Positions 18,503 to 56,292 are shown, numbered from the stretch's first letter. The stretch: 64,000 nt of DNA from Callorhinchus milii (GCF_018977255.1 NW_024704742.1:62001-126000); one strand, 5' to 3'. Notes: generated by a model from the sequence alone, not told the origin. Program-made: numbers and translations.

Positions 18503-19992
18503 ATGAACAGCAAAGTCACCATCTCCCTCCTTGTCCTTTATTTGGCTTCTCCACAAGGTACAGAAATATTTGTGTTTATAAGACTACAATATTACACAGA
18601 CTAACCTAGAGTGTATTGGTTAGTTTGTCAACTCAACATATTGTGTTGGCAGAAATACTGTACTTCATTCAACAATGTGTCAATATACTATATTTTGGTA
18701 TAATTCACACCTTTAAAGGTCTTAACCTAATAATTTGGATGTAATGTATATGGGGTGTGCTGGTGAACAATGATTTATTGGGTGCATGTGGCTGGCATTC
18801 AGTCATATAATAATAAGACATTTCTGTAAAGATTAATTCTGCCTCATTGGGTGTTACAGGAGCGACCCTGCGATGTCGGTGCATCAAAACAGAGCCTAAT
18901 TTTATCCATCCAAAGTTCATAGACAATATTATAATTATCCCTAGTGGTCCCCACTGCCCCAAAGCAGCAATCATGTAAGTATTAGGACTATTACATTTAA
19001 CAGGGAAATTGAGTTCTTCTGTCAGATATTATTTCACACATCATTAATTCAAAGGCTAGAAAATAACTTCATGATTTTTCAATTATTTCCAGTGCCACAC
19101 TTCAAAGCTTCAAACAAGTCTGCCTGAACCCTGATGCCGCTTCAGTGAAAAAGATCATTGGCAGGATGATTGATGGGTAAGTATGTACTTCTAGGTAGTA
19201 ATATTGTCAGGTAAAGGGAAACTAGTCACAGTATCAAACATATGTGTTGTTGAGACAATTGTAAAACATCTTCCTAAATTTCACCTAGTCTTGGGCTATA
19301 AGACAATTATGTTATAAATGGTTATTTGTGGGGCATAATTGTGTGCTAATTGGCCCATGTTCGGCCACAAACTATACACATATAGTCACACCACTTTACA
19401 GTAATTCCTGTGAAGCTCTTTGAGACATCTCAATTATGTGATAAAGCACTATAATTAAATACATTGATTATAATTGTAATGTAATATTTTAAGTTTGCAT
19501 AGATTTGTGGAAAATTCTTAGATTCAGTTTTAATTGAGAGATTTGTTTTCCATGATTCTTAAAAGAAGTCTTCCAAATTAAGAGCGAATATACAATTTTT
19601 CTCTGCAATGTTAATTTTTAAGTGAGATTTTTGCAGGTTTTGCAGGGTCCTAGATTCATCACTGTGACATTTAAATTTCTCTCTTCTGCTCTCGGTCTCC
19701 TTAAAGCTACTTAGATTGAGTTTACTGGAGTGAGAGTGTATCAAAGCCTCATTAATCTACATAAAAAGATGAACCATTCTGTCCAGGATATTCTTGATCA
19801 TACATTGCAACAAAGACCACTTTCAGCTTTTGTTGAAGTCTCTCATGGAGTACTTTTGAACAATACATCAAGATTTTTTAAAAAACTAAGTGCTTCTTTT
19901 CTTATGACACATTTCTCCATGAAATCTGTGCAATTTGTAAAAATATTTCTTGCTTTTTCCACAGATCCAAGAACCCTGAAGCAAATCAATGA
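18503..19992 (+). CDS. cxcl8: CXCL8-like CXC chemokine, gene A (4 exons; TLR-CRC; exon-2 start uncertain, may be partly degenerate)
   Basis: Exons 18503-18557, 18860-18974 (acceptor ttacag), 19093-19176 and 19965-19992, all with GT-AG boundaries. Product 93 aa: MNSKVTISLLVLYLASPQGATLRCRCIKTEPNFIHPKFIDNIIIIPSGPHCPKAAIIATLQSFKQVCLNPDAASVKKIIGRMIDGSKNPEANQ. It has four chemokine Cys, the SGPHC motif and VCLNP. The paralog-equivalent acceptor position (before 18839) reads TT rather than AG. Confidence 0.75.
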
Positions 19993-20327
19993 GGAGAAGC
20001 CACAACATCAAAGTGTTGAGATTGAAACCCAATTATGCCAGGGCCTCTATGTTTTAAATTCGGTCATATTTATGTGTTAAAAATATTTCATTTATTTGGT
20101 GGTTTATTTATGATTTCATAAAAGGATATTTTGGTGTTTCAATACCCGTATATCTATTGAAATTGTACTTTTTAAAAAATAATTTATTTACATTTTAAAT
20201 ACATCAGGAATTACTGGACTGGAATATATTTATTTAATAAATGAAATAATTACTTTGTATATTTATGGCAAAGCTTCTATTTTTAATCTCTGCTGATCTG
20301 CTTAACTCAATGAACTGTTCAAATAAA
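19993..20327 (+). promoter_or_regulatory. Gene A AU-rich 3'UTR and poly(A) signals
   Basis: Several overlapping ATTTA/TTATTTAT motifs, with AATAAA at 20236 and 20322. Confidence 0.55.
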
Positions 20328-23300
20328 TTTTAAAATTCATATGAATGATGAGAATTTTGATGGATTTGTAAGTTGAATTAACATCATCATTGGTTCATAC
20401 TACATGCAAGAGAATAAAAAGGAATCAATACCTTTCATCACACATATATATAAAAAAAATTCCACCGTGGTTACATATATCTCACAAAGACAGCATTATG
20501 AAACACTACAAATTTCATCCCATGTAAAGTCACGGCATGGAAAAATGCTACTTGGCACATCAGGCTCTTTGAAAGAGCAATCCATTCAGACATACATGCC
20601 TTTTCCCCATATCCTGTACATAACAAAAGCAACAACAACTTGGTTTATATAGTGACCTTCAATTGGGGTGGTGTCTTGGAGCACTTAGCAATGGTGGAAC
20701 TGGACACATAGCTAGGAGAGGGGGGGAGGCAACTGTGGGCACAGTTGGAAAGGAACGTCTTCAGGTGCAATCTGAAGACGGACAAGGAGGGTTCAATTAA
20801 AGAATTATAACAACCACAAGATTACATTTGTATAGCGCCTTTCACGTCGGGAGAACGTCCCAAGATGCTGATTACTCCTTTTTCGATATTTATCTCGTTC
20901 CCACTTGAAATTCAATATAGTTTCTGCCTCAAATTCTGCTCTCAGCCCCTCGTTCCACATCCCAGCAACTTTGTGTAAATAAAATCCACCTATTATCCCC
21001 ATTTGCTCCCTTGCTAACAATCTTAAATTATAGGCTATGTGCTTTAATTTAAGATAGTAAAGCACAGTTAAGATAGTTAATTTAAGATTGTTAAAGGTTA
21101 GGAGTCACTGATTCATCAACCAGGTGAAATAATTTCTATTGACTCTTTCAAAACCTTTATAATTTTAAAAACCTCTACTTGGTCTTGCATTTTCACCAAA
21201 CTCACTAATTTGTTGTACCAGAATACTTCATGGTTCATTTTGTTTGACAATACATGCAACATCCAACAACTTGCAGTTGTATAGTGCCCTTCACATAGGA
21301 TAATGCCTTGGAGTGCTTCAAAGCACCAGGGTTGGGCACTCAGTTGGGAAGAAAGTGGGGAAGGGACCATAGACAAGGTAGGTTTTAAGGTAGGGCTTGA
21401 AGATTGATAAAGACTGGGTGAGGCGGAGGTATTGAGGTTAGAGTTCCAGACATTGGGGGTGTAGTGACCGAATGCTCAGTAGTAGTGCAGAAAGTGTGGA
21501 GAATGCATTGCAGGTATGTTAGCTGAGCAGAGGGGTGGGCAGAGTAATAGGGTACAAGGAGATCAGAGAGGTAGGGAGGTGCAAGGCTGATTTATCTGTG
21601 AAGTCGAGCCATTCAATAGAGTTTGGATCAGCTGGACCTTATGAAAGGCAGAACTTGGGAGATCAGTGAAGAGTCAAGGTGGGAGGTTTTAAAAGCACAG
21701 ATGAGAGTTTTGGCAGGATTTGGTGTGAGGTAGAAGTTGAGGTAACGGAAAACAGTTTTGGCCAGTTTGGGCTTGAATATGAGTTAAGAGGACATCTGAG
21801 GATTGAACCAGATTGTGTTTGATTTGGGGGATTGTTAGCCAGGACATCGGGAACATCCTTCTCCTTTTGAACAGCGCCCTAGGATCTTTAACGTCCACTT
21901 GGTGGGAACTCGTTTTAATGTCTCATCCGAATGACCACATGGGATTTAAACCCATAAACTTCTGACTCAGAGATGACAGTGAAACCACCAAAAGCCAGGC
22001 TGACAGGTACTTTGCAATAACAAAGTGCAAAATTCATTGTAGTTTTCTGTGTCCTCCACAACGTGGTATGGAAAGGAATATGACATTGGAGGTCAATGCA
22101 GCAGGTAAAAGACTTTTCCCTTTCTCCACTCTGAGAGTTTGGCCTACATTAAAAGGCACTATCTGTATTTTAATTGTGTATGGATGTGTATTATGCACAG
22201 GAAGCCAAAAATTCCACCTCATTCTGTAAATTCCCTATGGACCACTTTGTCTTCAAGGGTAAGAGCACAGAATTAAGAAAAAAATCTTAAATTCAGTCTT
22301 AACTTGAAAAGTGGATCTTTCAATAAAGTTCAATAAATCAATTTCCAAATGAAGAATGACTTAAGAATCTTCTTTTTCTTCCCACTGGGCAATACTAAAC
22401 TTCATAGGCTACAGGTTAAGACAAGGTGGAATTTTATGTGTGAATATATACGTTCAGAGGAATTTATAGGAGCCCTTAATTATTCATTGGATATGCCCTC
22501 CATACATATCCTTGTACACATACAACAAATAACAACCTGGCCTTACACGCCTTTCACATAAAATAATGTCTTCACAGAGGTGGGTTGGGAATTTAAGCAA
22601 GAGGGGAGGATAAAAGGGAGGTGGTAAGTTTTCACAAGGATTTTGGAAGCAGAGGAGGGAAAGTGCAAGGCAGAAGGATTTTGCAAAAGAGTTTCAGATT
22701 GTGGGAGTACAATGGCTGAAAGCCTGGCAAGTCTAATGGTGGGCAGAGGTGGCAAGAAGTGGAGCAAGGCAGAGGGAGTAGCCACATCTCCCCTAATAGA
22801 ACCAAGTATCGAATTCACATAATTTGGGACAGTTACCTTTTGCTATTCTGTCTAATCATTTTAACGTTGCTTTCAAATCGTACCAATATTTAGTTTTAAT
22901 TCTTTAGCTATTTATATGCATTGAACAGCATATTTCACCTTTAATTATTTTAATTAAATAAAAAATTAAATAATTATTCTTGAATATGATATGGCTGGTA
23001 CTTTTCTCATAATGATCGAGAAGTGTAGAAATTACAAGATAGTATTTCAGAAACTTTTAGAAGATTATTTTGAGAGTTTTATCAACTTTACCTAGGTGCA
23101 ATGTCTTCCAGGCCTGTTCTCTAACCAGTAAACTTTCTTCTTACTATTCTCACAGGGTTGTTGCTCACTCTCCACTACTTCTTCTGCACCAATGGCCAAT
23201 AATAATAATAGCCTATAAAGATTATAAATTAGAATAATAATGGTTGCAGTTACGGCATCTTGTCACATCAGGAGGACATTCCATATAATTCACAGGATGT

Positions 23301-24184
23301 ATTGTTAAGTGTATGACTATGTGCTTTGTAAGTGAAGACTGAAGCCAATTTACACACAACATCACTCAAAACAGCCATGAAGTGAATGCCCAATTTAATT
23401 TGGGGGATTGTGGGGAGAAACTGGGATACTATATAGGCCAGGACACGGGGAGAAACTGCTCTTTTTGAAGACTGATGTGGAATCTTTATCATTCACCACA
23501 AGAGGCAGCCAGAAAAATGCTACATGTATGTTCTGCATTTGTAGGAACCATGTCCAGACAAATATGTTGTTCATAATTCTTCAGAAACAGAAGGAACAAT
23601 TACGTTAGTGTCCTTAGTGCCGCTTATTTAAGGGTTAATATTGGTAAACTATAAAATATTTCCCATTTTTCACAAACATTATGTAAAAATATCAGTTGCA
23701 CAACATTTCATAACAATTTATGAGTTAGAAACAGATTGGACACGACCTTTGGTCAAACTCGTTTTTTTAAAAAGTGCGAGGGTGAAAAATGCATCATGTG
23801 ATTTGAACATTTCATATTATTTAATAATTATCACCAGTTATTCTAAAAACTAATGTAATAATGCATTTTATATTGGGACTTTCATGTCAGGAAGACATCC
23901 TATAGCGCTTCACAGGATTTACTATAAGGTGTAGTGACTATTTTGTAGGTTAATGAACAGCAATTTGTACCCAGCAATGTCCCATAAACAGCCATGAAGT
24001 GAATGACCAATTTTATTTGTGGGATTGTTGGCCAAGACAGGAGGAGACATACCCTCCTCTTTTCGAGTAGTCCCATGGGATCTTTAACATCCACCTGAAC
24101 AGGCAAACAAAACTTGGTTTAACATTCCATCTGAAGGGCAGCACAGCACTAATTCTTAATGAATATCAAAGTGAAAAGACATTC

Positions 24185-24480
24185 ACTCCCAACCTTGACA
24201 AATGTTTCGGCTCAAAGCCATCTGAGGCCTCTAAATGCTACCAATATAGTTGTAGCCTCCCGATTATGGCGGTCGTTCAGTCCCACTAGACGGAATCTTA
24301 TATATAACTCAATTTGAGTTTGACTGGTATTCCATATAGCGACATAAGAAGACTCAACTCTGAATAGTTCAATTTAACAGGCAAGTTGAAGAGATCCTAA
24401 CTTTTCTACTTTTCATATTCTCTCTTAATATGTCTTCAGGTTCATAAAAAAATGATAGCGGTTTTGTATGAATATTACCA
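24185..24480 (-). mobile_element. Possible Penelope-like relic with decayed minimal hammerhead
   Basis: The reverse strand reads ...VGLNDR..., then CCTCAGATGGCTTTGAGCCGAAACATTTGTC (24195-24227). Confidence 0.4.
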
Positions 24481-25689
24481 ATCCCTAGGAAAAGGAAAAG
24501 AAAAATAAGCTAGTGTTCTCAATTCCAATCAAAGTACAGCAATTCTTGCTGTAACTGTAGATATGTGGATTTCCAGGTGAAAGGGATTGTGTTTGGGTGT
24601 GCGTGATTCCATGATCAAATAGCCCAATAGCACTCATTGGACAGACTCACACATAAAGAATGTTTACTTTGCAAGGAGATGATGATGGGAACCCAGCCAC
24701 AGCTTTGATGCCTTCAGGGGAAGAAGAGCCTGGGAAAGCTGCAGGGAAATATGAGGAGAAAAAGAAAAGAAAGAGCATTAATGAGGCTGTCCCCATCAAT
24801 GGTGTTTTCAGTATTTTCTGAAGAGGTGGCATTTTACTTTGTATTGCTGGTACATTGTACCGTTTCCCCAAGCACATCTGTAAAATGTAATCCAAAGATT
24901 AAATGCGATTCCTGTCATGCTTGTAATTCTTAATTATTGGGACATAGAAGATTATGAAATGGACATTGGCTTCATAAGATTGCAACGGATATGTGCAAAC
25001 AAAGGGGAATATTTCAATCATAGTGATTAAACATTAACCCTGAAGGATCATCAGCATACGTTGTCTCCATCACATCTTTCCTGCACCCCCACAGATGGCC
25101 AAATTTGTCCCTCCAACCAACTGTCCAACCACGTCAACACCATGGAAAAAGACATTGAAATGAGTAATGCCACTAAATGTACAGATTTGTGCAAGAACGC
25201 TCAAAGTAGGCTGTAGGCTTCATGCAACATACAGTGAGTCACAATAATCTGCAATGCACAATATGACTCAGAACCTTTTACAAACCAAATAAAATCATGC
25301 ATTAAAGGAAAAAATCAAGTAATAAATAGCAATGGATATTTTTGGCGTTTTCTCAGCTGATATAGTTTTTGTGTCTGCTCCCAGTTATCTATAATAAGAA
25401 ATATGAGTCTGTTGATAGTTCTCACTTCCCCCACAGTCTGACTGTCTGGCAACTATTACATCAACAATACATTTAAAGGTTTACTGTAAAGTCTTGTAGA
25501 CTTCATACAAAAATCTTGAAATTGCAATGGAAGGTTTTTCAGGATACTGGCAGATATGAATATAACATATTCTTAGATTTTCGCTGACAAAATATCCAGA
25601 TACAATTCTTTAAAGTAAAATCCTGTGAAGCTCTTTAAGATGTCCTCCTGACATGAAAGCCATAAATTGAATGTAATGATTATTACCCA

Positions 25690-26295
25690 ACCCATTCAAC
25701 CCATGCATTCCAGTCACAGCCAAAACACTCGTCCATGCATTCGTCACCTCTCAACTCGACTTTTTAAAATGTTCTTTTCGCCAGTCTCCCCAGCTCAACC
25801 ATACACAGGATCCAGCTGATCCAAAAGTCCGCCGCCCGCATACTCACCGATACTAAACTCTGCACCCTATCACACCAGTTCTAGCCAGGCTGCACTGGCT
25901 CCCTATCGCCAAACGGATCGATTTGAAGATCCTCACACACGTTTTCAAATTCCTTCATGCCCTGACACCTCCCTCTCTCTCTGAGCTGCTCACCCCCCAA
26001 CCCACAATATGCTGCCTCCGCTCGACTGGCTCCAGCCTCCTGCTTGTCCCCCATGCCCTCTGTTCCATCATTGGCGGCCACGCTTTCAGAAGCTATGCCC
26101 CGAAAGTCTGGAACACTCTTCCTCTATCCCTCCCTCAGCCAGCCCCTTCCTTCCCCATCGTCAGGTCGATCCTAAAGATTTTCAACCAGTCACCTCCCCC
26201 TCCCCCGGCTTAGCATCATGCTCCGCCACTGTCAAGTTCTCTGGTGCGCTACTCTGTGTGAGGGGCGCTACATAAATGCAAGTTGCTGTTGTTTT
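25690..26295 (+). mobile_element. L2 LINE 3' fragment
   Basis: Reads LHWLPI...KILTHVFKFLHALTP...GGHAFRSYAPKVWNTLP, followed by an L2 tail. Confidence 0.8.
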
Positions 26296-26731
26296 TGATA
26301 AGCACCTATTCATCCACACTGTAACCCTTTGACTCCAATTTGAAACACTCTTACATAAGTGTAAATTATATTGCACATGCATCTTAAGAAATCTGAATAA
26401 AAAAATCAAAACTCACAGAAATATAAGCGTGAAGTGGCTTTAACATGGATCACAATAGAAGTCAATTATCTAATTAGACGACAGATGTTCAAACAAAATA
26501 GTGAAGTCCTTCAATTTTATTTTAATTCAGTGGAATATTATTACTCGAAAAGAGAAGGGGGTTTCTTCCAGTGTCATGGCCATGATTTCTCCAAATAAAG
26601 AGGTCATGCAGCTCATTTTTTTGTAGGATATTGCTGTATTGCAAATTGGCTACCACTAATATTTTCAGTCAGGATTGCCATTTGCTGTCAGTCACATTTT
26701 ATTGAGTGGAAAAATCTTTATTAACTGCATT

Positions 26732-27224
26732 TTGGAGTCCTGCAGCTCAGTGGTTAGAGCACTCAGTTTGCAAGCGAGACACCTGGGTTCAATCCAGGCA
26801 GAGGGCGAAACCTTGGGCAAGTTTCCTTACTCCACACAGAGCCTAATAATAATCCTCCAAAACAAAACAATAATAAATTGGTCATTTTCAATCTACGACT
26901 GTTTGTGGGACATTGCTGTGCGCAATTGGCTGCCGCGTTCGCCCACAAATATACAGTCAATTCACTTTGCAGTGTGTTCTGTGAAGCGCTTTGGGACGTC
27001 CTCCCGACGTGAAAAGCGCTATATCAAATGCAAGGATTATTATTATTATTATTATTATTTTCAATCTATGACTGTTTTTGGGACATTGCTGAGTGCAATT
27101 GGCTGCCGCGTTCGCCCACAAATATACAGTCAATTTATTTTGCAGCATATTCTGCGAAGCGCTTTGAGATGTCTAGAAGATGTGAAAAGCGCTATATCAA
27201 ACGTAAGGATTATTATTATTATTA
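26732..27224 (+). mobile_element. Young SINE plus a tandem extra 3' half, ~200 nt upstream of the gene B TATA
   Basis: Full copy to ~27058, then a second, more diverged body and tail. Confidence 0.88.
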
Positions 27225-27525
27225 GTGTTCATACAACAATTAATTCTTATATCAATCTGATTAAACATACATTCGCTTCAGATTCCATGTGCTTCAGTGA
27301 GTCTGAACATGTTATGTCTATCATCTGACGTCTAGGTCAATTACAAATAAAAGTTTCCCAGAAAACCACAAGTTACATCACGCAAACTCCCCCCTGTCCC
27401 ATCCCCCCAACGAGTGACAAAATTCAACCTATAAATAAAGCAATGGAGAATCAGCAAGTTAGAACCAATCTGTAGCAGCACAGCAACAGGAAGAAGGTAA
27501 AGCAAGAACGAACAAGTAAAGCACA

Positions 27526-29086
27526 ATGAACAGCAAAGTTATCGTCACCACTCTCTCTCTCCTTGCATTTTATGTGGTTTCTACGCAAGGTAAGAAATTA
27601 AGAAATGATCCAAGTCTATGAAGCTGTACAGCAAAGATGCAGCTCTAAAGAACTTCACAGTATTTATACAGAATCTAACATTATATTTACAATGTATGCA
27701 TGACCGTAGTTAATAATAATCATTAGATATCATCAAGACATCTCAAAAGCACCTCACAGGATATAGTGTAACTTGCTGTGACTGAATGTGGAAGTCAGTT
27801 TCCAAACAGTATTTATTCAATAGAATTAATAATTGCAATTTACTGTTCATTTACAGTGTTTATGTTTTATAGCATCAACCATAGTGTTAGAGATATACAG
27901 ATACCAGTAGAGGTGTGTGTGTCCTTCTCTGACTGCACAGTGTATATCTAGAAATTCACTCATATAGTCTGACTTACTGAAAAGAAAGTCAATATCTTCA
28001 GCCATATTTAATTTGAAAAAAATTGTGGTGAACGGTTATCATTGGTGATCAAGTCTAAAGTAGTGTTACTTGTTCTCTCCACAGCTGCTTCTCTTCGACG
28101 TACAGAAGTAAATCTGCGCTGCAACTGCATCAGAACAAATTCCAATTTCATCCATCCAAAGTTCATGGATCATATAGATATTTTTCCCAGTGGTCCTCAC
28201 TGTCCAGTGGTGGAAATCATGTAAGTATTGCTCGTGATAATTCTGCTATTTGCGTGATTAATGAGACTTGAGCATTTTTATGAAGAGTTGATCCCTCTTT
28301 AAACTGAGGGCACACAACAGTATTTGACATCTCTCTTCATCTCTTTCAGTGCCACCCTTAAGAGCGGTAACCGTGTCTGCCTGTATCCTGAAGCTTCCTG
28401 GGTAAAGAAGATCATTGAAAAGATGATGACGAGGTAAGCATCCTTCTGGTCAGGAATAAGATAGTAAACCGATTCACTGGACATGACAGAAAGCAATATC
28501 ATGTTTAGTTCAAAGTTATAGCTGTCCGTAGCACACAAAGTTGTGGAGGCTTGTGGCTCAGTGGTTAGAGCACTTGCCTCGCAAACAAGAGGACCTGGGT
28601 TTGATTCTTGGCAGAGCAAAATATTGAGCATGTTTCCTTACTCCACTCATCCCTGTTTACCTAGCAGTAAATAAGAACCTGGTTGTTAGTCAATTGGCGA
28701 ATCGCTTTTCTGGTGGTAATAATCCTTAAAGTATATTTTAAATAATAATAATTAGGTCACCCTATTGTTTGTGGGACACTTTTGTGCACAATTGGTTGCC
28801 GCGTTTCATCCCCACAAAACATACAGTCAATTCATTTTACAGTGTATTCTGTGAAGTGCTTTGAGATGTCTAGAAGACGTGATAAGGTGCTACATCAAAT
28901 GCAAGGATTATTATTATTATTAAAGTTACTTCCTATGTGAGATGGAGGAACACGAAAAAAGAGTAACACAAAGCACTACAGCAAGGTAGAGCAGAATGCC
29001 TAATTCCTCAAATGCTTCTATCTATGTTAATGGTTGTAATATTTAATAATTATTATATTTTCTACAGTAATGATGAACGTCACTGA
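27526..29086 (+). CDS. cxcl8: CXCL8 (IL-8)-like chemokine, gene B (NLR-CNC)
   Basis: Exons 27526-27589 (64 nt), 28085-28220 (136), 28350-28433 (84) and 29068-29086, with canonical splice sites. Product 100 aa: MNSKVIVTTLSLLAFYVVSTQAASLRRTEVNLRCNCIRTNSNFIHPKFMDHIDIFPSGPHCPVVEIIATLKSGNRVCLYPEASWVKKIIEKMMTSNDERH. It has a signal peptide, CXC, GPHC, EIIATLK and CLxPxxxWV. TATAAA at 27430-27435. Confidence 0.93.
28542..28922 (+). mobile_element. Long-form SINE in gene B intron 3
   Basis: tRNA head, extra central segment CCTGTTTACCTAGCAGTAA, shared body and (ATT)n tail. Confidence 0.85.
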
Positions 29087-31326
29087 AGAGAAATACCACG
29101 TGCCTGAATGTCAAGGGAATGTAAGCCACATGTCACTGTACGACATGGGCAGTTCATATCCACTGTAGTTATCCTCAGGCTTATTTTCAGCAGTCAATAT
29201 TCGTAAATCTAGTTGAATCAGTATTACTTTATCTATACAATGCTCATTTATTTGTATAATCATATTTATTTATGTATTGATTTATTTAACTGTGTCATGA
29301 AATTAAGTTTGAAGTATAGATCTTACAATTGAGGCTCAATTGAAATATATCCTGGTAACCTTAGAAACCTTGTAACCTGAGTGCGAATATCCAATGGTTT
29401 GAATGTCAAATAGCCACTCAGATCACTTGGACCTGTGGTTCTGATTGATTTGGTGTTGCCACTTGAACCACCCAATTGCACTGTTACTGTCGACTCACTG
29501 CTGCCGGATTATGGAACTTAGAGGCTTGTCTATTTGTGTGACACATTGGGAACTAAACCACAGCTATTCATTATTAATAAGGATAATTTATTATTAATAA
29601 TGATGATTTGTTATTAGTAACAAAATCTCTATTGGGAATTATTCTTTCTGGTAACCGGAAGTACTTTGTTTAGAATTCTTTCTGGAAATAGATAACATCT
29701 GTTCAGATTATTGCTGGCAATGCGGCAATAAACTGTGAATTATTGGACGCAATTCTATTTTATTTCTTCTCAGCAATTTTGTGGTCATAAATGTCTTAAG
29801 GTATTTTGTATTAATTTATAGTTGCTGACTGTGTTGTGTATGTACCCTCACACCTCTCTGTCTTCCCCCACCTCTACACCACCCCTCCCCCATGTTCAGG
29901 CCTCCGACACCTGAGTGTTCAGCGCTTTGGGACATCCTCCCGACGTGAAAGGCGCTCTAATAAATGTAAAAATGTAAATGTAATTTGTTGTTGCTGTTAT
30001 ATTGACAATAACAATGTATGTACGTGGACAGTATCTGTTATCTTTTTAACACATTTGTATTTATAACTTTTTCTGTGAAATTATTTATTTATATATTTTA
30101 ATAAAAGGGTAAATTATTTCATATTTCAAAACGTTGAATTTGTTGTCTGTTTAAATTGTTCAGCTTGTCTACATTGAGTATTTAACAAGAGCTCACAGTT
30201 ATAACTTGCCCATCACATCTTGGAGCACTGCACAAAGACAGGATGGGCACTGAGCGAGGGAGATGGGGAGGGGGAATGGGGAGTGATCATAAGTGCAAAG
30301 TGGTAGACTTTTAGGCAGGATTTAAAGATAGACAGGTGGTGAGGAAGGGAGTCCCAGAGACTTGGGGTGTAGTAACTGAAGGTATGGCCTTGGTGCAGAG
30401 TTGGTGGGTGACACACAGAAGGCCTGAGTTTGCCAGGGAGAGGGTCAAGTGTTCAGAAGAGCATCAACAGAAAACTCAAATATTGGGATTTAGGTTGGCA
30501 TAACAAAAAAAATGCTTAACCTTTGGATTTCTAAACTTTCTCAAAAAATACTGTGCCATATAGTGCACACCCTCCTTTACAACAGTTTGCCCTCCAACTC
30601 CTTCACTATAGTTCACACCCTACCCTTTCACTGTAGTTTACCCCCACAATTCTTCACCATAATTTACCCCAGCACTCTTTCCTACAGTTTACACACACAT
30701 ACTTTCACGATTTGCATCCCCACTTGTTCACTATTGTCTAGCTCCTCCCCCTTTCAGTATATCATCCTTGGGTGGAGAGATGAGGAGGCTTCCCTAGAAG
30801 CTGAGCTGACTCCAGGATAATGTGCTTAGCAATGGAATATCAGAATCGAACCAACCCTCTGTGGCAGTCTTGGTAGTCCAGTTCCAGGTCTGCAGTACTC
30901 TAGAGTACTGATGACAAACCAGACAGACTGGCACATTGGCAGGACTTGGAAGGGCAAACCAATCTCTGAGAATAGTGATTCTTCCCACTCAGCACCTAAA
31001 AACTCTACAAACCAATGCTCTAATGGGTAGTGTAGAACGAGTTGAATAATTAGTAGGAAGCTTGCTTAATAGTGATCTTAATGCAAACTATATGATTTTA
31101 GTGAGTTAAGCTCCAGCAGCACCCCCAGGCCTTGGCTCTTGCCAACCTGCACCTTATATAGGTAAGCAGGATGTGTTCCTCCAGGGAGAGAGGGTGCACT
31201 CTATTCAAAACGTAAGGAACTTTCCATGTGTGGCTGACATAAATTTGTGGAAAGCTTAGTCCGGTTTCAGTACTCTTAAGCATGGTGGTGGGTTTCAACG
31301 TGCCAGTCACCTGGTCAACAAAAAAA

Positions 31327-31715
31327 TCTCCTCAAGAAAGAGATAAAATGGAGGGTGAGGTGGGGGCGGTGACCATAAGCATGGTTGAAGAGGAAGGTTT
31401 TCAAGCGGGCTTGAAAGAGGGGAAAGAGGGGGCAAGACAGAGGGATCGAGGGAAAGTGTTCCAGAGTTTTGGGTCATAATGGCTGAAAGCACGATCCCCG
31501 ATGGTGGGGCGGAGGTGACGGACAAGCAGGAGCCAGTGCCAGTCAAGCGGAGGCACCGGGTGGTGGACTGGGGAGTGAGGAGGTCGGAGAGGGAAGGAGG
31601 TGCCAGAGAGTGAAGGGATTTGAACACGAGTGAGAGGAACTTGAAGTCGATCCTTTCGGTGATGGGGAACCAATGGAGCCTGGGCCAGAACTGGTGAGAT
31701 GGGCAGTCCCGCCCA
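31327..31715 (-). mobile_element. L2 LINE 3' fragment
   Basis: Reverse ORFs read FKSLHSLAPPSLSDLL and IGDRAFSHYDPKLWN. Confidence 0.8.
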
Positions 31716-31969
31716 TCTCAGATCCAAGAACATATAGCAGGTACTGGGAGCTGAAAAGAAAAAAAGCTCTTGCGCATCCCACTATTCCAGTTGGTGGACC
31801 ACAGTTTAAACCAGCATTAAATATGAAATTCTAACCCTAAATTCTTACCATGAAATTCAGGATTCCATTCACCTTGTTGCTTTTGCTCTGTCTTTGTAGA
31901 AATAGTTAGGGTTATTAGGAGGAAGATGGATTTTTTTCTTTGAATATTTATAATCTCTTTCTTTGGTTT

Positions 31970-39790: not shown

Positions 39791-39844
39791 TGCCATACAA
39801 TGAAGACATTCAAAGTAATTCTCATCATTACCCTCTTCATTGAA

Positions 39845-41530: not shown

Positions 41531-42069
41531 TCAAGTCAGTTATTACAAAGACTCATTTATGTAAGTAAGCGAAGCAGACCGAAGACTAACAAATTATCAT
41601 TCACTGTCACAGCCCATCCACCACCTGCCTGTCTGTAGGTCCCGAGCACTGAGCCATAATAAAGCTTGAAAATCCCTTGTTGTCTGCAAGATTATGGCTA
41701 AAAGTGACATCACCCTGATAGCAGCACTGCACTATCATGTGGATAACACACATGGTTTATGCGCCCAGACAGGAAATACCACAATGGTCATGACGTGTGA
41801 TTGTGTGGGCTTTCTCAAATTACACTTTAAAATTTATGTTAGTTCGCTACAGGGTCCTCAGTAAATCAGCTTTGGGATCTATTATGAACCATTTGTAAAC
41901 CATGTCTAACACATGGGTACAGTGCGAGATACAGATGCCCTTAATTCTTTTAAGTGCTGCCCACCTGAAAGGCGCTACACATATTGCAAATTGCTGCTAT
42001 TGTAATGAACAACCCATAAAAGAATTTACAACTAAGCAATAAGCAATTAAATTTAAAAAAACCTAGCTT

Positions 42070-43384
42070 TGCAGGTATGAGGGAAGAATTAGCTAAAATA
42101 GACTGGGGAATTAGATTAATGGATATGACAATAGACCAACAGTGGCAAACGTTTAAAGAGGTAGTGCATAATTCTCAGTTATCCGTGGCTAACTAGAGCA
42201 GTTAGAGAAAGTATAAAACTAAAAGAAAAGGCCTATAAAACGGCCAAAAAGAGTAGCAAACCTGAGGACTGGGAGAGTTTTAGGGACCAACAAAGGAAAA
42301 CCAAAAAGCTCATTAAGAGTAAGAAAATGGATTATGAGGGCAAGCTCGCTAGGAATATTAAGACAGATTGTAAGAGTTTTTATAAATACATTAAGAGCAA
42401 TAGGCTAGCAAAAGTAAATGTGGGTCCATTATAGGCAGAGACAGAGGAATTATAATGGGGGATAAGGATATGGCAGAGTCCCTAAATAAATACTTTGCTT
42501 CTGTCTTCATGTTAGAAGACACAAGATGTTTACCAGAAATAGAGATAAACCAAGGGGCTAATGACAGGGAGCAACTTAGGGAAATTTACATTAGCAAAGA
42601 ATTGGTGCTAGGGAAATTGTTGGCATTAAAAGTGACAAGTCCCCTGGACCTGATGGTTTGCATCCTAGGGTTTTAAAAGAGGTAACTCATGAGATAGTGG
42701 AGGCCTTGTGTCTGATCTTCCAAAACTCTTTGGATTCTGGAATGGTTCCCATTGATTGGAAGATCGCAAACGTCATATCACTATTTAAGAAGGGTGAGAG
42801 AGAAAAGATGGGGAACTATAGACAGTTAGTCTGACTTCAGTGGTAGGGAAAATTCTAGAATCCATAATTAACGATGTCGTACTGGAATACTCAGAGGATC
42901 ACAATATGATTAGACAGAGTCAACATGGCTTTACAAAACAGAAGTCATGCTTAACAAATCTTTTACATTTTTTTGAAGACATATTAAGTAGTCAGATAGG
43001 GGGGAATCAGTGGATGTAGTGTATTTAGATTTCCAAAAGGCATTCGAGAAGCTGCGCATAAAAAGTTGATCCACAAGATTAGGGCCGATGGAATTAAGGG
43101 GAATACATTAGCATGGATTGAAGAATGGCTAACGGGAAGAAAACAAAGAGTAGGGATAAACGGGTCCTTCTCAGATTGGCGGGATGTAACTAGTCGAGTG
43201 CTTGGGCCTCAACTATTTACAATCTACATCAACGATCTAGATGAGGACATCGAACTTAATATATCCAAATTCGCGGATGACACTAAACTAGGAGGGAGAG
43301 TAAACACTGAGGATGACATTACAAAAATGGAACGAGATATAGATAGGCCAGGGGAGTGGGCAAATAGGTGGCAGATTAAATATA
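42070..43384 (+). mobile_element. CR1 ORF2 RT region, truncated at the gene D duplication breakpoint
   Basis: Reads MAESLNKYFASVF, QHGF, VYLDFQKAF and VLGPQLFTIYINDLDE...SKFADDTKLGG...WANRWQIKY, then switches abruptly to the duplicated block. Confidence 0.92.
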
Positions 43385-43697
43385 CGTGCGATCGAGTTTG
43401 AGGTAATGGGCCATTGACACAATTAATCCCTTACAGTTAGTATCGCCTGATTTAGACAGCAGTTTCAATCTGGTTTAAGTTAGTATAATACTAGTCCTCC
43501 TGATGTTCCTGACGTGATATGTTTCATTGGCAAATTCCCAGCAAAGCTGTGGTAAGACTTTGGAGCTGAAAAAAAAGGGTTTTGTAACAGTAATAAACCT
43601 GAGAGAATCGCGTGAAACCACAAGAATGGACAAATGTGACCTTAAGTCATTGCTGACCTGGTTTCCGTTGACGAATGATGTTGTAAGGAACACCTCA

Positions 43698-43752
43698 ACT
43701 TCCTGGGAAACTCCAAGATTTGGAATGACTCACAGCCTTTTCAGGATATAAA
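43698..43752 (+). promoter_or_regulatory. Gene D proximal promoter (copy of gene C promoter)
   Basis: GGGAAACTCC 43705-43714, TGACTCA 43726-43732, TATAAA 43747-43752. Confidence 0.72.
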
Positions 43753-43843
43753 GCGGCAGTTGAGCGGTGAGGAGTCAGAAACAAACTGCAGCCGCACAGC
43801 ACAGCACAGGGCAGAGACACAGCAAACACCACGTACAGCAAAG

Positions 43844-44845
43844 ATGGACAGCAAACTGACCGTCACCGTCCTCGCTCTCCTCGCACTATATGTGGCTTCT
43901 ACACGAGGTAAGAAATCATCTGCCGGAATGTACGGTGTTTAATTATAATGTACCACCAGCCCTCAGGATTCCAGTGTGAGGGACACTGACTCCAACAGAG
44001 AGATGTGATGGGACTTTGATTCCCAAACCTGTAAATCTGTATGAGAATGAGAACCTTTTGATGGCATTTTACTCTGAAGCCTAAACCTCTGCACTGGGTT
44101 TATTTCACAGCTGCATCTATCGGAAGCGCGGGAGGAAGTCTGCGTTGTCAGTGCGTTAAAACAATGTCTGAGTTCATCAATCCGAAGTTCATGAAGAACA
44201 TTGAGATTGTTCCAAGTGGTCCTCACTGCAGCAATGCAGAGATCATGTAAGTGTCATTAATGTGGAGCATTAATACCGTCCCGTTTCTTTCAGTCGCGAT
44301 ATTTTTAAACAGTTTCAGCAGAGATTTGAGGCTGACCATTTGACACGTCTTGTTCTTCTCTTGCAGTGTCACTCTGAAAAGCACAAACCGAGTCTGTCTG
44401 GACCCACAAGCTCCCTGGGTGAAAAGGATCATTAACAGGGTGATGAATGGGTAAGTGCCCATTCCTGTGTCAGGGTGGGATCAGGGAAAGGGAACCAGTT
44501 CACCTCTGTACCAAGTGACAGCCACAAATGCTCCTGAGTCAAGTGAAGCATCAGACAATGACATAAAGAGCTTCTCCACATGCAGTTTCACCCACAAAAT
44601 ACACAGTCAATCAGTCAATTCACTTTACCTTATATTCTGTGACACACTTTGAGAAGTCTCAAAGACGTGATTAGGAGCTATATCAAATTCAAGCATTATT
44701 ATTATTATCTGAAAAGTCACAGACTCAACATATTTAACCTCCTTTCTGAAGTACCTGCTTTCTTAAAAACGACTTTATGTGTATTAGAATTGGTAACTCA
44801 TGAATTGTTTCATCTTTCTGCAGTGCCAATGCTGAAGGTCACTAA
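43844..44845 (+). CDS. cxcl8: CXCL8 (IL-8)-like chemokine, gene D (coding-identical duplicate of gene C)
   Basis: Exons 43844-43907, 44111-44246, 44367-44450 and 44824-44845, offset 8268 nt from gene C. No coding differences were seen by eye. Confidence 0.9.
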
Positions 44846-47544
44846 GAATGTCTAAGGATGGAGAGAGAGCCTGAAAGCCTCTTGTCACAGTCTCGTTACT
44901 ACCTCAGCTGTCTTCGTGTTCAGACTTCTTCTCAGCAGGCAGCAAATGTTAACCTGGTTTAAAGCAGTCTTCACTGAAGTTTATATCCATTGCATGTATG
45001 TTCTTACTGAACAATGTAATTATCTTGAAATGTGTTTATTTTCTCAACTGAGACTAAACTGTGGCCAGCACTTAGGACTGAGAGCAACCGAGGGACTGGA
45101 TGCAAAGTAATAAGCCAACAGCTGGATCTGTGATCCTGCTGTTTGCTAGGATTTTTGTTGTTGTTATTCAATGAGATTTTGTCCCATATGTTGTCAGGTT
45201 ATGGTGTGACATGCACAGTTAGTTACTCAGTGGAAATGTCACTCAGTATGACAAATTGTCAGTATTATGATATTGGTTCGGTCTTTTGATTTATTTGGGC
45301 TTTTATTTGCTTCGGTATTTATATTATGTATTTATTCCCTTACATTGAGAGTGCTAAAATGTCTACAGAAAATAATTTGTTGAAAACTAATTTATGTTTC
45401 AAAGTAATTTATTAAGACAATAAATGGATTAATTACTATTTATTTATAGTATTTCAAATTTGATATAACTGTCTGTTATATTTGTTACATCTTGTTTAAA
45501 AGGAACATTGCAGATTAAAAGTTATTCATCAAATAATCCCTGCACTTGATTTCTATTTGTACATTGATTGCATTTGACTTTTCACAATGAACCATCATAG
45601 CTCATTCCTCTAACCCTGGAGATGATCTTTGATCTTTGATCATCTCCTCTCAATAACCTGTGAGGCCTGAGCGTGCAGCTGCAGCCTGTCCAGACCACTT
45701 GTCAGCTTGAGCTGCTTTTTCCCTCTCACCAACCAGGTAAATCGATATTAGATGTGGAGAGTACAGGAACAAGAAGCTGAGAAACAGAAAGAGCCTGATA
45801 GCTTCAACGTCAATTTCATGTTTGCATTCAAAGTACCCGAAGGGAGAGAGGTCCATGTTTACCTCCAGCACTTTGCATTTCACTTTGCGGGGAGGAAGGC
45901 CAAAGTACTAACCAAGACACCGTGGAGCAGGATGCAGTTCAAGAGGTCGGAGGAACAGAATAGAAATGTTGCAGGTATAGGGGATTCAATAATAGGATAG
46001 ATATACAACACTCCATAGGTTCCAGATCATCCAGAACTCTGCAGCCCATATCCTCTCCCGCACCAGGCTCCGTGACCCCCATCCTCACCCGACTCCACTG
46101 GCTTCCCATCACACAGAGGATACCGTTCAAGGTACTGGCCCTCACCTTCAAAGCCCTCCATGGCCTTGCTCCCCCTACCCCTGAGTCCTCCTAACTCCCT
46201 ACCAACCTGCCCACTCCCTGCCCGGCTCTGGCCTGCTTCACGATTGGGGGCAGACTTTCAGCCATTCTGTCCCCACCCTCTGAAAATCCATCCTCCACCT
46301 CGCCGCCTCCCTTGCTTCCATCAAGACCCATCTCAAGACCTTCCACTTTGACAGTTCTTTCGCTTCCCCCCGTCCTCCACCGTCCCCAATACCGAACCCC
46401 AGCTCAGGTCCGAAACACTGACTGTCCAGTGCCTTGGGACGTTCTCCTGACGTGAAAGGCGGGAAAAAAACAAATGTAATTTTGTTGTTGCTGTAGAGGG
46501 CTTGCTCTGTAGTCGCAATTGAGTGTCCAAGAGGCTGTGTTGTCTACTGGGTGTCAGAGTAACAGATGTGTGCAAGTGGCTGGAAAGAAACTTGGAAAGG
46601 GAGGGGAGAGAACCAGTTGTCATGGTCTGGTCCAAGTCGGAATCAATGACATAAGAAACAACAGCAATTTCCTGCTGAGAGAGTATCAGGAGCTAGGAGT
46701 TAAATTAAAAAATAGGACCCAGAGAGTGTTGACCTTCAGATTACTATCTGAGCCACGTGCAAATTGGCATAAGGATAAACACATCAGAAAAGTGAATGTG
46801 TGGGAAGGAGCGGCTCCATTTCATGGGTCACTGTCACCAGTATTGGGACAGGAAGGAGCTGATGGGCAGGGCTGCACCTGCACCGGGCTGGGAGCAAAGT
46901 CCTTGTGGGAAGGATTAATAGGACTGTAGAAAGGACTTTTAACCAGTAAAGGGAGGGTTCGGGTGGAAATAATAGTAACCTAAAGATAAGAATAAGAAAG
47001 GATGGAACACATGTCAGAGAACAAAAAAGTGATAAAGATAATATAAATACTCCAGGAAGAATAAAGGTTATAGGAAGTAATCACAAAAAGTGTATCAAGT
47101 GAAAAAGTGTCAGGAAAACACCATCAGGGCAGGGCAGGGACACTTACCCAAATAAGTCTTCTATACACGAATACATGTAGGATAAGAAATAAGAAATGAA
47201 ACAAGGAAGTTACAAGCACAAAATCAGCTTAAAGAGTATGATGCTGTTGCCATTACAGAGACCTGGCTACAAGCTGGGCAGCACTGGGAGCCAAATATTC
47301 CAGGCTACAAAATCTTTTGAAAGACCATGGAAATTTGGAAGGAGGAGTAGCAATATTGATAAAAGGCACAATTACAGCAGATTAAAAGTTATTCATCAAA
47401 TAATCCCTGCACTTGATTTCTATTTGTACATTGATTGATTTGACTTTTCACAATGAACCATCATTTCCTCCTATTTAAGAAGCAAGAAACACAATGAAGC
47501 CGCACATATCTCAAGAAAGCCAAATCACACTGAAAGCTCCCACA

Positions 47545-52606: not shown

Positions 52607-55600
52607 ATGAACATCAAAGTCACCGTCAATGTCCTTGCTCTTGTTTTACTTTGTGTAACTTCCACACAAGGTATGAAATTAACTGAATCTTTTGTATTTG
52701 TAAAATGATTATGGTGACTAATTACAGATTTATACAGTTAGAGTTAAGAATGGAGAGTGGAGTTAGATTTAAGTAATTATGTAATAATAGTAAGAATTTT
52801 TGTTGTAATGTCTTTCATATTGGGAGGATGTCCCAAAGTGCTTCACAGGATAAAGCGCAGAGACTGTGTATTTTATAAACAGCAGCCAATTTAAGCACAA
52901 TAATGTCTCACAAACAGCCATGAAGTGATTGTGTATTTTAACTTGGAGGATTATTGTCCAAGACACTTGGAGAAACTCCCTTATCTTTTCAAATAGTGAC
53001 TGTTTGTGGGACACTGCTGTGCGAATATGGCCCACAAATTATGCAGTCAATTCACTTTACATTTTGTTCTGTGAAGCGCTTTGAGATGTCTCGAAGATGT
53101 GATATCAAATGCAAGGATTATTATTATTATGGGAACTTTAACTTCTACCTTGATAAACAAATGGGACCAAAGGATGAACCTCTAATAATGCAGCATACCT
53201 CGAAGGCTCTATTGACTAATTTGACTAAGTCAGCCTGGACTATGAGTTCAAATCCCGATGTGAAGCTTGTACCCACAAGTTTCTGACTCAGAGCCGAGAA
53301 TGTTACCAGTTGAGGCGGGCTGACACAAAACAAGAGTTAATGTCAACAATCGTGTTTACTCCTGTTATGCACATTTAACTTTTAGTGAACTTTTTATCAA
53401 TTAAGATCAGGAATGTTAATGCTGGGAAACATTTGCCAGTCTTACAGCTCCAGTGTCAGCAACAAACATGCACAGATAAGGCACTGCAAAGCTATTCCAG
53501 AATTAAAGGCAGTTTTGCACAGTGGACACATACTGGAAGGGTAAGGAATTGATGAATTGATGTCGGGTTGAGAGAGTTTTGGTGAGTGCTGAAAGTGCTC
53601 AGATGAGTGTTTTACTTTACTCTGGGAGCCAGCATTAATACAGATGGAAAAATGAGCATAATGTTAATTTTGGAAGCACTTCTTGCTTGATTTTAATTAT
53701 TTCTACATATATAGGGAGAAGACTAAGACAGGTGGGGGGAAGCAGGATATGGGCTGATCAGATGGCACAGTGTACAGTATTTGTGCATTCATGTATAGTT
53801 CTGCGAAGGCAACGATTAAGGTGAAATCTCCCAGGTCCTTGAGTTCCTGATTTCCTGTTGGAGATGGGGAATTAGATTGGATCAGGCAATGAACTGAATT
53901 CATATGCAATTTAGCAGTGTGTGTGAGATTAGACAGAAATGCAGGGAGATCAGGTGAAATCCTCCGTTTCATATCTGAGGATGACTGTGTACTGATGAAT
54001 ACAACAGATAATCAATATGGAAAAAACATAAGAACAGATTCATGCTATATCAATAGATGCAAATGTTACAACCATTTTCTTGAAAAAAATGTAATCAATA
54101 AAAATAATTGTGATTATGTATGTTTCTCTTAGTGTTGCTGCTTATTCGAATCTTCTCAAAGGGCAGTGGTTATTTTGAACAGTAAATTACAGAACTACTT
54201 TTTAAAATTGATTTGGCACTTTATGTAGAATATTGGAGGAGAGAAGTGACTGGCTTGAAACATGAAACAGAGTAAAGTCTTGTCTGACTGGTTGAGTGAT
54301 ACTGGATCAGTGCTTGCAGGACAACTGATCATACCATTGCAATATAATACAATTTTCATTCATATAGTGCCTTTTCACATTGGTAGGAGATCTCAAAGTG
54401 TTTCAAATACCAGTGAGATAAATTGACAATTTCAATCCCATGATATTAAAAAAATGTGAAAAACATAAATAGTATTTTACTCTTCAGTCTTAAAAGTAGA
54501 TGTCTCAGAGAGGATCTTATTGAAATAGACAAGATTTTGAATGAGATTGAGAAGGTAAACTCTAAACAATACTTTCAGTTGTAACAGGACAACAGAACAA
54601 GAGGACACAGATTTAGGGTTGCAAAGGGCAATTTCAGGACAGACACCACAAGACATTTCCTTACCCAGAAGGCAACAAACGATGGGAACGTAATCAGAAA
54701 TGATGGTTGAGACAGGACATTGACTCAATTAAGAAACAACTTGATGCTGGAATCGGAAGATGGTATTCTAGAAGAGATCAAATGGGTCAAAAGCCCTTCT
54801 TCATATGAACCTCTCTTGTTAACTTCTGCAACAAGTATTTAGTGTTTAGAGATAATTATCTTGTGAATGAAAGAGGAGTTCCGGCAGGGGAGTTCCGTTC
54901 AATCAATGGATAATTATCCTTTAAATCATAACCAAATAACTAGAGTGTATGGAAGGTGAGAGTCAAATTAGTTGTGATAGTAGAAATCTTCCACAATTTG
55001 TTGAGATAAGACAGATTTTCTGTGTTGTTGTCGGGTTGAGAGAGTTTTGGTGAGTGCTGAGTCCCAGCTCTAAACTCCAGTAAATTTAATATTGTGAACC
55101 AATATAACTTGGTTCTGTAGCTCAGTGGTTAGAGCACTCGCCTCGCAAGCAAGAGACCTGGGTTTGATTCCCGCCAGGGCGAAACCTTGGGCCAGTTTCC
55201 TTACTGCACATGCCTGATAATAATCCCTCAAGAAAAAAACAGTAATAATTTGGTCACTCAATCCACAACTGTTTGTGGGACGCTGCTGTGCGCAATTGGC
55301 TGCCGCGTTTCGCCCACAAATATACAGTTAATTCACTTTACAGTCAATTCTGTGAAGCGCTTTGAGACGTCGAGAAGACGTGAAAAGCGCTATATCGAAT
55401 GCTAGGATTATTATTATTATGACTTCAGCCACCAAGAAAAGAAACAAATATCTTATGGTTATTGTAAAATGGAAATAAGAATTATAAATATGTCTTGCAA
55501 AAAAAATTCCTTTAAAAGTAAGATCTGTAACCTTTTCATTATACAGCTTTTCCCATGATGTACCTACGCTGTAAGTGCATCAATATCCGTTCTGGATTCG

Positions 55601-56292
55601 TCAAACCATTGAGATTATTCTAAGTAGTCCCGAATGTGCAAGTAAACAAATCATGTAAGTGTTAACAGTATCCATTATTGACTTAACTTGCTATTTGTGT
55701 GTGTATATTATTTAATTGCTAAGAAAGACTGAAAATTCAAAGTAACTCAATTGTTCTTCATTGATTCCAGTCTTACCCTTCAAAATCAGCGGGTCTGCGT
55801 CAAACCTGAGGAATGGTCGGTGAAGATTTTGTTCCAAAAATTTAAGCCTGGGTAAGTTTCCATTTCCATGCATTTGGAAAGAATGAACCTTCAGACTAAC
55901 AAAAGGCTATAGCTGCACAGGACAAATATCACCATGCACAACAATTAGCAAACCATTATGTCGAACATTGTATTTGGATTTCTTTTCTCAATATATTTCA
56001 AAATCTATTTGTGACCAAAACTATTGCACTACCTTGTACTTTAATCCTCTCCTAAATTAAAAGAGCTTTCCTCATATTGTCTACTACTGTTTCCGAACAA
56101 CTAAGAATATTGAGGTGTAAAAGAACACTTGGATGCAACTGTTGGATTAGAACAAACTCATATTTATGTTACTGTTTTGAAGGAATTAGACAGAAAATGT
56201 ATTGTCAATTCTGAAGACCTATAACTTTCTAAATTAATGTTTTCTTTTTCCACAGTTTGACCAAGATTAAACATCCCAGAAAAAAAGCATAA
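52607..56292 (+). pseudogene. Frameshifted CXCL8-like chemokine, locus E (YLR-CKC, basic C-terminal tail)
   Basis: Exon 1 52607-52670 (MNIKVTVNVLALVLLCVTSTQ). Exon 2 55547-55654 reads AFPMMYLRCKCINIRSGFVKP, then shifts frame to TAA at 55621-55623; the alternate frame reads IEIILSSPECASKQII. Exon 3 55771-55851 (LTLQNQRVCVKPEEWSVKILFQKFKPG). Exon 4 56256-56292 (LTKIKHPRKKA*). All splice sites are intact. TATAAA at 52521-52526. Confidence 0.82.
55113..55420 (+). mobile_element. SINE in locus E intron 1
   Basis: Head, body and (ATT)n tail. Confidence 0.88.

Follow-up and report, generated by a model that had tools for sequence, protein, structure and literature searches.

CXCL8-like chemokine genes of cluster A in the elephant shark Callorhinchus milii: a near-identical duplicate pair, a putative pseudogene and the residue before LR

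What does a row of CXCL8-like motifs represent in a cartilaginous fish when each contains a Leu-Arg pair and none the preceding Glu of the mammalian ELR: a working gene family, a fresh expansion or a set of decaying copies? And does the changing residue before LR carry a meaning? The question is raised by a stretch of 64,000 nucleotides from the elephant shark Callorhinchus milii (GCF_018977255.1, NW_024704742.1:62001-126000), referred to here in its full length as the window, whose own coordinates are used unless a scaffold position is given. An initial annotation, made from the sequence, had proposed a five-member tandem CXCL8-like cluster in this window, diversified at the residue before LR and shaped by local birth and death. 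We hold with high confidence that the best explanation of the whole is the published CXCL cluster A, with four intact CXCL8-like genes in the window (A to D), of which D is a copy of C, with a decayed locus E, with a probable inducible and granulocyte-directed role, and with birth-and-death turnover of its members.

Cluster layout and family placement

A six-frame scan of the window found five matches to xLRCxC on the plus strand (TLRCRC at 18865, NLRCNC at 28111, SLRCQC at 35869 and 44137, YLRCKC at 55561) and one, unrelated, on the minus strand. Gene A (TLR; 18503-19992) has coding exons at 18503-18557, 18860-18974, 19093-19176 and 19965-19992, of 55/115/84/28 nucleotides, and encodes 93 residues. 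Gene B (NLR; 27526-29086), with exons at 27526-27589, 28085-28220, 28350-28433 and 29068-29086 (64/136/84/19), encodes 100 residues. Genes C (SLR; 35576-36577, exons 35576-35639, 35843-35978, 36099-36182 and 36556-36577) and D (SLR; 43844-44845, exons 43844-43907, 44111-44246, 44367-44450 and 44824-44845) both have exons of 64/136/84/22 and encode 101 residues. All four genes, which lie on the plus strand, have four coding exons separated by GT-AG introns with phases 1-2-2; the sizes given count the stop codon with the final exon. Locus E (YLR; 52607-56292, plus strand) completes the row, and the span 18503-56292 thus runs from the ATG of A to the stop codon of E. This five-locus pattern is far beyond chance. 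The scan and the gene models bear out the coordinates, sizes and motifs of the initial annotation, including its five same-strand, four-exon loci with common splice phases and the 64/136/84 exons of B-D.

The cluster, its gene structures and its xLR residues are already annotated and in print. A genome search placed the window at C1:62001-126000, an offset of 62,000, and after this shift the coordinates of A-D coincide with those of LOC103191143, LOC103191142, LOC121849590 and LOC103172510, listed as CXCL 'cluster A' in Dataset S1 of Kawasaki et al. (PNAS 2024; PMC10801876). The exon sizes are the same (for A 55/115/84/25 and for B 64/136/84/16, each plus the stop codon, which Dataset S1 does not count), as are the phases 1-2-2 and the entries TLR, NLR, SLR and SLR. 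Two of the marks by which that work delimits cluster A, the four coding exons with phases 1-2-2 and, by the scaffold coordinates of the published table, the position beside jchain and anxa5, were found for A-D. There a further YLR gene, jchain (155751-162101) and anxa5 (163442-181746) lie downstream of A-D on the same scaffold. The YLR gene, LOC103188309, is given at C1:132820-138570 with exons of 79/139/81/166; our model of it, at C1:132849-138531 and about 7 kb past the end of the window, has exons of 79/139/81/166 plus the stop codon and encodes 155 residues, including a 55-residue tail after the chemokine domain. For the elephant shark, Table 1 of Nomiyama et al. (2012; PMC3568907) gives a count of four genes in the CXCL8 group and of two receptor genes in the CXCR1/2 group.

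The larger part of the CXCL8-like cluster A lies in the window, with the immunoglobulin J chain gene further downstream. As a count of loci in the window, the 'five-member cluster' of the initial annotation stands; the cluster itself comprises five intact genes, A-D and the YLR gene beyond the window, and E is a separate broken locus. No sixth chemokine locus was found in the window by tblastn with 12 chemokines, and Pfam searches of 17 long frames, then of 19 (one of them repeated), returned reverse-transcriptase fragments only and no additional gene. The cluster bears on the ancestral jawed-vertebrate CXCL8/CXCR1-2 axis and on the timing of the ELR motif, and its genomic neighbourhood is proposed as the source of the immunoglobulin J chain, all of which is already in print for these genes (Nomiyama et al., 2012, PMC3568907; Kawasaki et al., 2024, PMC10801876). 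What is new here is of annotation grade: the putative pseudogene E, the anatomy of the C/D duplicate, a spliced C/D transcript and a wider xLR tally.

Judged by their sequences, membership of the CXCL8 group is supported for all members. Against a gathering cut-off of 21.3 bits for Pfam IL8 (PF00048), exon 2 taken alone scores 24.1 bits in C, 24.8 in B and 26.8 in A, and exon 3 alone 25.8 bits in C and 23.8 in B, all above the cut-off; exon 3 of A falls below it, at 17.3 bits (E 0.0057). The NCBI protein named interleukin-8-like [Callorhinchus milii], at 100% identity to C/D, carries PF00048 in the precomputed table, and the database relatives are all named interleukin-8 or interleukin-8-like. 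Among solved structures, phmmer ranked human IL-8 first for C/D (E 3e-23 over 96 residues), for B (E 5.7e-20) and for exon 2 of A (E 1.4e-8), ahead of CXCL1-7, with CXCL13, CXCL10, CXCL9 and CXCL12 following far lower. A was tested by exon pieces, and B through UniRef V9LK62, which is without the last six residues of B and ends in one residue of intron 3. Mammalian CXCL1-7 trail IL-8 by just 8-12 bits in this search, and they are mammal-only groups in Table 1 of Nomiyama et al. (2012; PMC3568907). As far as these tests reach, the single family proposed by the initial annotation did not split across CXC subfamilies.

Four Cys with CxC spacing and a hydrophobic N-terminal exon mark the spliced translations of A-D as CXC chemokines; in E, Cys 1-2 and Cys 3-4 lie in different frames, which leaves it outside that definition. 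Cluster A is further marked (PMC10801876) by a conserved Glu that follows the third Cys and by a WV motif ahead of the helix; B, C and D have both, and A has Ala and SV in their place. Each of A-D would encode a CXC chemokine that is secreted and, without its signal peptide, about 70-80 residues long, on an exon plan like that of human CXCL8. Exon 1 would encode the signal peptide, exon 2 the xLR-CXC N-terminus and the first strands, exon 3 the last Cys and the helix, and exon 4 a short tail, followed by an AU-rich 3' untranslated region (UTR).

The C/D duplicate pair and locus E

The coding sequences of C and D are identical, and so are their proteins. Self-comparison of the window delimits a first copy at 35117-39156 (plus strand, 4040 nucleotides), made up of 459 nucleotides of promoter sequence, gene C and about 1.9 kb downstream, and a second at 43385-47380 (plus strand, 3996 nucleotides) that contains D. 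They differ by 11 substitutions, or 0.28% over the 4-kb block, and by one 44-nucleotide indel, none of them coding. Between them lie 4228 non-duplicated nucleotides (39157-43384) with a copy of a short interspersed nuclear element (SINE), recognized by its transfer RNA (tRNA)-like match at 39346-39408, and a decayed fragment of a long interspersed nuclear element (LINE) at 42047-43384, whose reverse-transcriptase pieces were matched at 42822-43398 (RVT_1, E 2e-4 and 1.1e-3). The left edge of the second copy abuts this LINE, which is 3'-truncated and cut exactly at 43384; five other genomic copies of the LINE extend about 800 nucleotides past the equivalent point. After the right edge stands a relic of about 105 nucleotides (47360-47464), 93% identical to the end of the C 3' UTR (37229-37330). 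The break of the second copy shows about 20 nucleotides of similarity. These flanks argue for real copying by a non-homologous or microhomology-mediated route and against an allelic artefact of assembly.

Two simpler routes were considered and set aside. Insertion of the D copy cleanly into a LINE fits on the left side, where the LINE is cut at 43384; the remainder of the LINE was not found after 47380. Simple gene conversion between older copies would call for colinear flanks, and the relic matches C at 37229-37330, not the sequence after 39156.

Could the pair instead be two alleles of one gene, set side by side by the assembly? The divergence of the copies is within allelic range, and the read contigs lend this some colour: in an alignment that covered 18400-38399 in four runs, only D's letter appears in all four at the 3' UTR diagnostic sites 36765/45033 and 37070/45338, and in run X4 each of the five diagnostic sites listed reads as in D. 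Contigs drop minor variants, however, so that a single allele seen in them is uninformative. In the same run X4 one contig stops 30 nucleotides inside the block and another begins exactly at 35117, as at the edge of a repeat, and in run X1 the contig within the block has a depth of 19.2 and seven other contigs listed lie at 6-13, a weak hint, as depth is no copy number. Moreover, the unique sequence that parts the copies contains no gap letters, all four flanks differ, and a haplotig duplicate does not present itself with a truncated LINE on the left and a 93% relic on the right. C and D are also two distinct RefSeq loci, LOC121849590 and LOC103172510, in the published table (Kawasaki et al., 2024; PMC10801876). 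We consider an assembly artefact very unlikely. As for the D-only letters at 36765 and 37070, C's letters could be private to the assembled individual or could have been dropped by the contigs. A lone N stands at 34275, 842 nucleotides upstream of the duplicated block, in otherwise continuous sequence.

Locus E is the broken member of the row. Its four exons (52607-52670, 55547-55654, 55771-55851 and 56256-56292) measure 64/108/81/37 nucleotides, and its signal-peptide exon, at 52607-52670, was missed by the motif scan and found by tblastn. Exon 2 is 28 nucleotides shorter than in B-D, by about 12 near its 5' end and about 16 internally, and as a result the frame breaks and a stop follows: tblastn matched the two halves of the exon in two different frames, and in the frame of exon 1 a stop comes soon after the CXC motif. 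In the other frame the conserved PSGPHC has become LSSPEC. No ATTTA occurs in the 900 nucleotides after the stop of E, against 7-9 in A-D, and in the careful tree its branch measures 1.78 against a median end branch of 0.17, about ten times as long. In protein identity E reaches 42-43% with A-C and 38% with the YLR gene beyond the window. Dataset S1, which flags pseudogenes in other species, has no elephant shark row for E (Kawasaki et al., 2024; PMC10801876). By its sequence, then, E is a frameshifted, decayed pseudogene, as the initial annotation had it.

For E to be a working gene, other splice sites would have to be used or exon 2 would have to be misassembled. Its exons 1, 3 and 4 are open, its ATG, GT-AG sites and stop are intact, and the internal loss of 16 nucleotides is seen in the assembly alone, the read contigs having covered 18400-38399. 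An exon 2 of 108 nucleotides nevertheless makes entry in phase 1 and exit in phase 2 impossible. This, together with the early stop, the loss of PSGPHC, the want of an AU-rich 3' UTR, the tenfold branch and the absence from the rows of the gene table (PMC10801876), makes a functional E highly improbable. Nor does the putative pseudogene look freshly copied from the YLR gene outside the window, which is intact and differs from E in its signal peptide and in its 55-residue tail. DNA matches between the two are confined to SINE and LINE stretches, their proteins share the 38% identity given above, and, by reading of the translations, the codon absent from the 81-nucleotide exon 3 is missing at different places.

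Age of the paralogues and the residue before LR

The duplicate pair and E uphold the local birth-and-death expansion of the initial annotation in part; for the older members the evidence is of another kind. Protein identity among A, B and C is 55-61%. The trees place none of B, C, E and the genes outside the window, which stand in a polytomy. A holocephalan-only clade of A, B, C and Chimaera IL-8 is not rejected by the approximately unbiased (AU) test (p-AU 0.74), and the tree under this constraint gained 8.3 log units over the quick free search. A, B and C may have arisen locally. As we see it, the family would turn over by birth and death, with an A type from before the split of Callorhinchus and Chimaera, a D born of a 4-kb copy and a decayed E.

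Three more CXCL8-like loci lie off the cluster, at C1:13201618-13203857, at C1:4752790-4755179 (minus) and at C7:9475649-9475780 (minus). The first has NLQ before CXC, and its annotated protein of 125 residues contains an 18-residue insert, read from just after exon 2, that looks like a doubtful extra exon.

A groups with the IL-8 of Chimaera phantasma in both trees, at 69% identity; in the quick tree the grouping has a support of 95 by SH-aLRT, the Shimodaira-Hasegawa-like approximate likelihood-ratio test, and in the careful one of 98/97. This grouping and a common short N-terminus indicate that the A type predates the Callorhinchus-Chimaera split. On this sequence evidence A is an old paralogue without a disabling lesion and not obviously decaying. 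Its frame is open, its splice sites fit the consensus, its promoter combines AP-1 and TATA, and its 3' UTR contains nine AUUUA motifs; with its Chimaera counterpart it no longer fits the 'possibly degenerating gene' of the initial annotation, to which no intact gene of the window corresponds. A bolder proposal is that the A type, with its very short N-terminus, its predicted maturation at or beside LR and its lost Glu, and kept in holocephalans from before the Callorhinchus-Chimaera split, may be a distinct CXCL8-like ligand, with a receptor preference of its own or a dampening action, that the cluster would be a set of specialised ligands arisen without ELR, and that C/D may be a copy-number polymorphism; we regard it as quite unlikely.

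The residue before LR does vary among paralogue types, as first described: T, N, S, S and Y occupy the position of Glu in A to E, and none of the five loci has Glu-Leu-Arg directly before the first Cys, which is the mammalian sense of ELR+. How unusual is this? We tallied the motif in the 46 other chondrichthyan proteins of the tree, which had been selected from the best 120 of 638 matches. SLR (18) and NLR (14) are commonest, followed by DLR (4), SLH, KLR and GLR (2 each) and by HPR, NMR, TLR and SLQ (1 each). ELR occurs in 0 of these 46 and in 11 of the 11 bony-vertebrate proteins sampled; Y before LR is seen in this sample only in E and in the outside YLR gene. Of the published ELR-type motifs (ELR, SLR, DLR and NLR; footnote 4 of Dataset S1), B and C/D carry one, and the TLR of A and the YLR of E fall outside that list, with TLR and YLR entries still standing in the ELR column of the table (PMC10801876). 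CXCL8 without ELR is described for teleosts and cartilaginous fish, and the fish DLR/XLR motifs as dispensable for neutrophil chemotaxis (PMC6145007).

Given a tally without ELR in which S and N prevail, and a motif that is reported to be dispensable, xLR variety appears to be the normal state in cartilaginous fish, and the special diversification that the initial annotation saw in this cluster dissolves into a general condition. The residue would be weakly constrained in these animals, in which case the series TLR/NLR/SLR/YLR would owe more to drift among old paralogues than to targeted diversification.

The opposite view is that the xLR residues and the N-terminal lengths are adaptive, tuned to particular receptors or cell types, in a specialisation of ligands that preceded ELR. 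It is the N-terminus that determines receptor activation in mammals. The paralogue types are old, as the grouping of A with Chimaera IL-8 and the distances among A, B and C indicate, and their N-terminal lengths differ: exon 2 has 115 nucleotides in A against 136, and the short form is common to Chimaera. The two CXCR1/2-group receptors mentioned above are also reported for the species (PMC3568907). Against this, S and N are what most sharks and rays have at this position (32 of 46), the DLR/XLR motifs of fish are reported to be dispensable for neutrophil chemotaxis (PMC6145007), and nothing in the analysis ties a motif to a receptor. We judge adaptive tuning unlikely and prefer drift at a weakly constrained position.

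Expression and comparison with known systems

Is any of these genes transcribed and spliced? In run X7 an 881-nucleotide contig aligns in four abutting pieces, 35540-35637, 35841-35978, 36099-36181 and 36555-37095, which are the exons of the C/D model, allowing for 1-2 ambiguous letters per joint. The genome search returned exon-by-exon matches only and no processed C/D copy. A spliced mRNA of C/D type thus exists, and the expectation of spliced transcripts in the initial annotation is borne out for this pair. Both the X7 contig and a similar contig end in run X6 have D's letters at the two 3' UTR diagnostic sites. Around B, record 13 of run X4 begins 2 nucleotides before the exon-4 acceptor with 28 unaligned letters, perhaps from exon 3. 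UniRef V9LK62 (Interleukin-8, Callorhinchus milii; 95 residues) agrees fully with B as far as the end of exon 3 and continues into intron 3, ending with one residue and a stop from the start of that intron (28434-28440), which points to a retained-intron or early-ending transcript of B. UniRef entries of this kind presumably derive from transcript data.

Upstream of C an NF-kB site (35437-35446), an AP-1 site (35458-35464) and a TATA box (35479-35484) form a promoter module on the plus strand (35437-35484), and the same module precedes D (43705-43752, plus strand). On both strands of the window there are 6 kB-consensus and 22 AP-1 sites, and the modules of C and D contain the only kB/AP-1 pairs no more than 40 nucleotides apart. 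The promoter of A (18390-18414, plus strand) has an AP-1 site at 18390-18396, a TATA-like box at 18408-18414 and, 5' of AP-1, a degenerate kB-like site with a flanking context as in C. AU-rich clusters lie in the 3' UTRs, all on the plus strand: at 20068-20265 in A (8 ATTTA within 200 nucleotides), 29246-29288 in B, 37021-37178 in C and 45289-45446 in D. The 900 nucleotides after the stop contain 9 ATTTA in A and 7 each in B, C and D; the density in the window gives 2.24 per 900 nucleotides. The genes A-D may therefore be inducible in inflammation, C and D through NF-kB, AP-1 and TATA and A through AP-1 and TATA. AUUUA-rich 3' UTRs would suit short-lived cytokine mRNAs, and the products probably attract granulocytes through CXCR1/2-type receptors of C. 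milii.

Several points weigh against this reading of A-D as intact, inducible CXCL8-like genes in a turning-over family. The kinds of the aligned runs are guessed, none being recorded as RNA. Among the contigs listed for 18400-38399 no spliced contig was found for A or B, and record 17 of run X6 and record 25 of run X7 pass unspliced across the boundary of intron 1 and exon 2 of A. B, alone among the intact genes of the window, has no kB or AP-1 consensus within 400 nucleotides of its ATG, where it has a TATA box only. In A both the conserved Glu and the Trp of the WV motif are gone, and the signal cleavage predicted for it in Dataset S1 lies 8 nucleotides into exon 2 (PMC10801876), so that its mature N-terminus would begin at LR; for these reasons A may work differently or poorly. 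The trees, built on about 103 columns with a single non-CXCL8 outgroup, resolve few of their forks, and the bony-vertebrate sample consists of top-scoring matches only and includes no teleost. Finally, we infer the induction and receptor use of A-D from their sequences.

Repeats are frequent in the window. A tRNA-derived SINE accounts for ten tRNA-like Rfam matches (34-60 bits) that start at 5105, 9477, 16380, 16795, 17569, 28549, 32257, 39346, 55111 and 63401; one copy sits in the third intron of B, another in the first intron of E. Contig depth in the aligned runs is dominated by these SINEs. Just upstream of the B promoter, at 26884-27224, two tandem units of 173 nucleotides, 88% alike, are related to the SINE body. 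A decayed LINE reverse-transcriptase fragment occupies 60586-61398 on the plus strand (RVT_1, E 5e-15), related LINE stretches lie at 13.8-16.2, 47.6-48.2 and 49.0-49.8 kb, and there are several LINE 3' fragments; the LINE stretches are GC-rich with a strong GC skew.

How do these genes compare with those of other vertebrates? Human CXCL8, whose coding exons measure 64/136/84, resembles them in the exon sizes of B-D, in the phases 1-2-2, and in the four Cys, the LRCxC motif, the SGPHC box and the WV motif. It differs in that no shark member has Glu before LR and in that several paralogues stand where humans have one CXCL8 gene. The proximal promoter of human IL8 combines AP-1, NF-kB and TATA, and its 3' UTR has AUUUA motifs; the kB site lies downstream of AP-1 in the human promoter and upstream of it in the shark. 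The interleukin-8-like proteins of sharks and rays (e.g., Triakis scyllium Q8UW91) are 56-68% identical to C, and several species have 2-6 paralogues on one chromosome; the trees do not tie B or C to particular elasmobranch genes. The counterpart of A is the IL-8 of Chimaera phantasma (UniRef Q8AXP4), which is like it in its short N-terminus and in the 98/97 grouping and unlike it in having SLQ and in keeping the Trp of WV, against TLR and SV in A.

Tandem arrays of CXCL8 are also found elsewhere, with three CXCL8b genes on zebrafish chromosome 7 and 2-5 genes in birds, lizard and Xenopus, and local tandem copies of the CXCL8 group with possible pseudogenes are described as typical of fast birth-and-death evolution (Nomiyama et al., 2012; PMC3568907). 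The cluster of C. milii, with its near-identical pair and its putative pseudogene, resembles these arrays in form. It differs from them in descent, the arrays being independent expansions in separate lineages between which no orthology is claimed.

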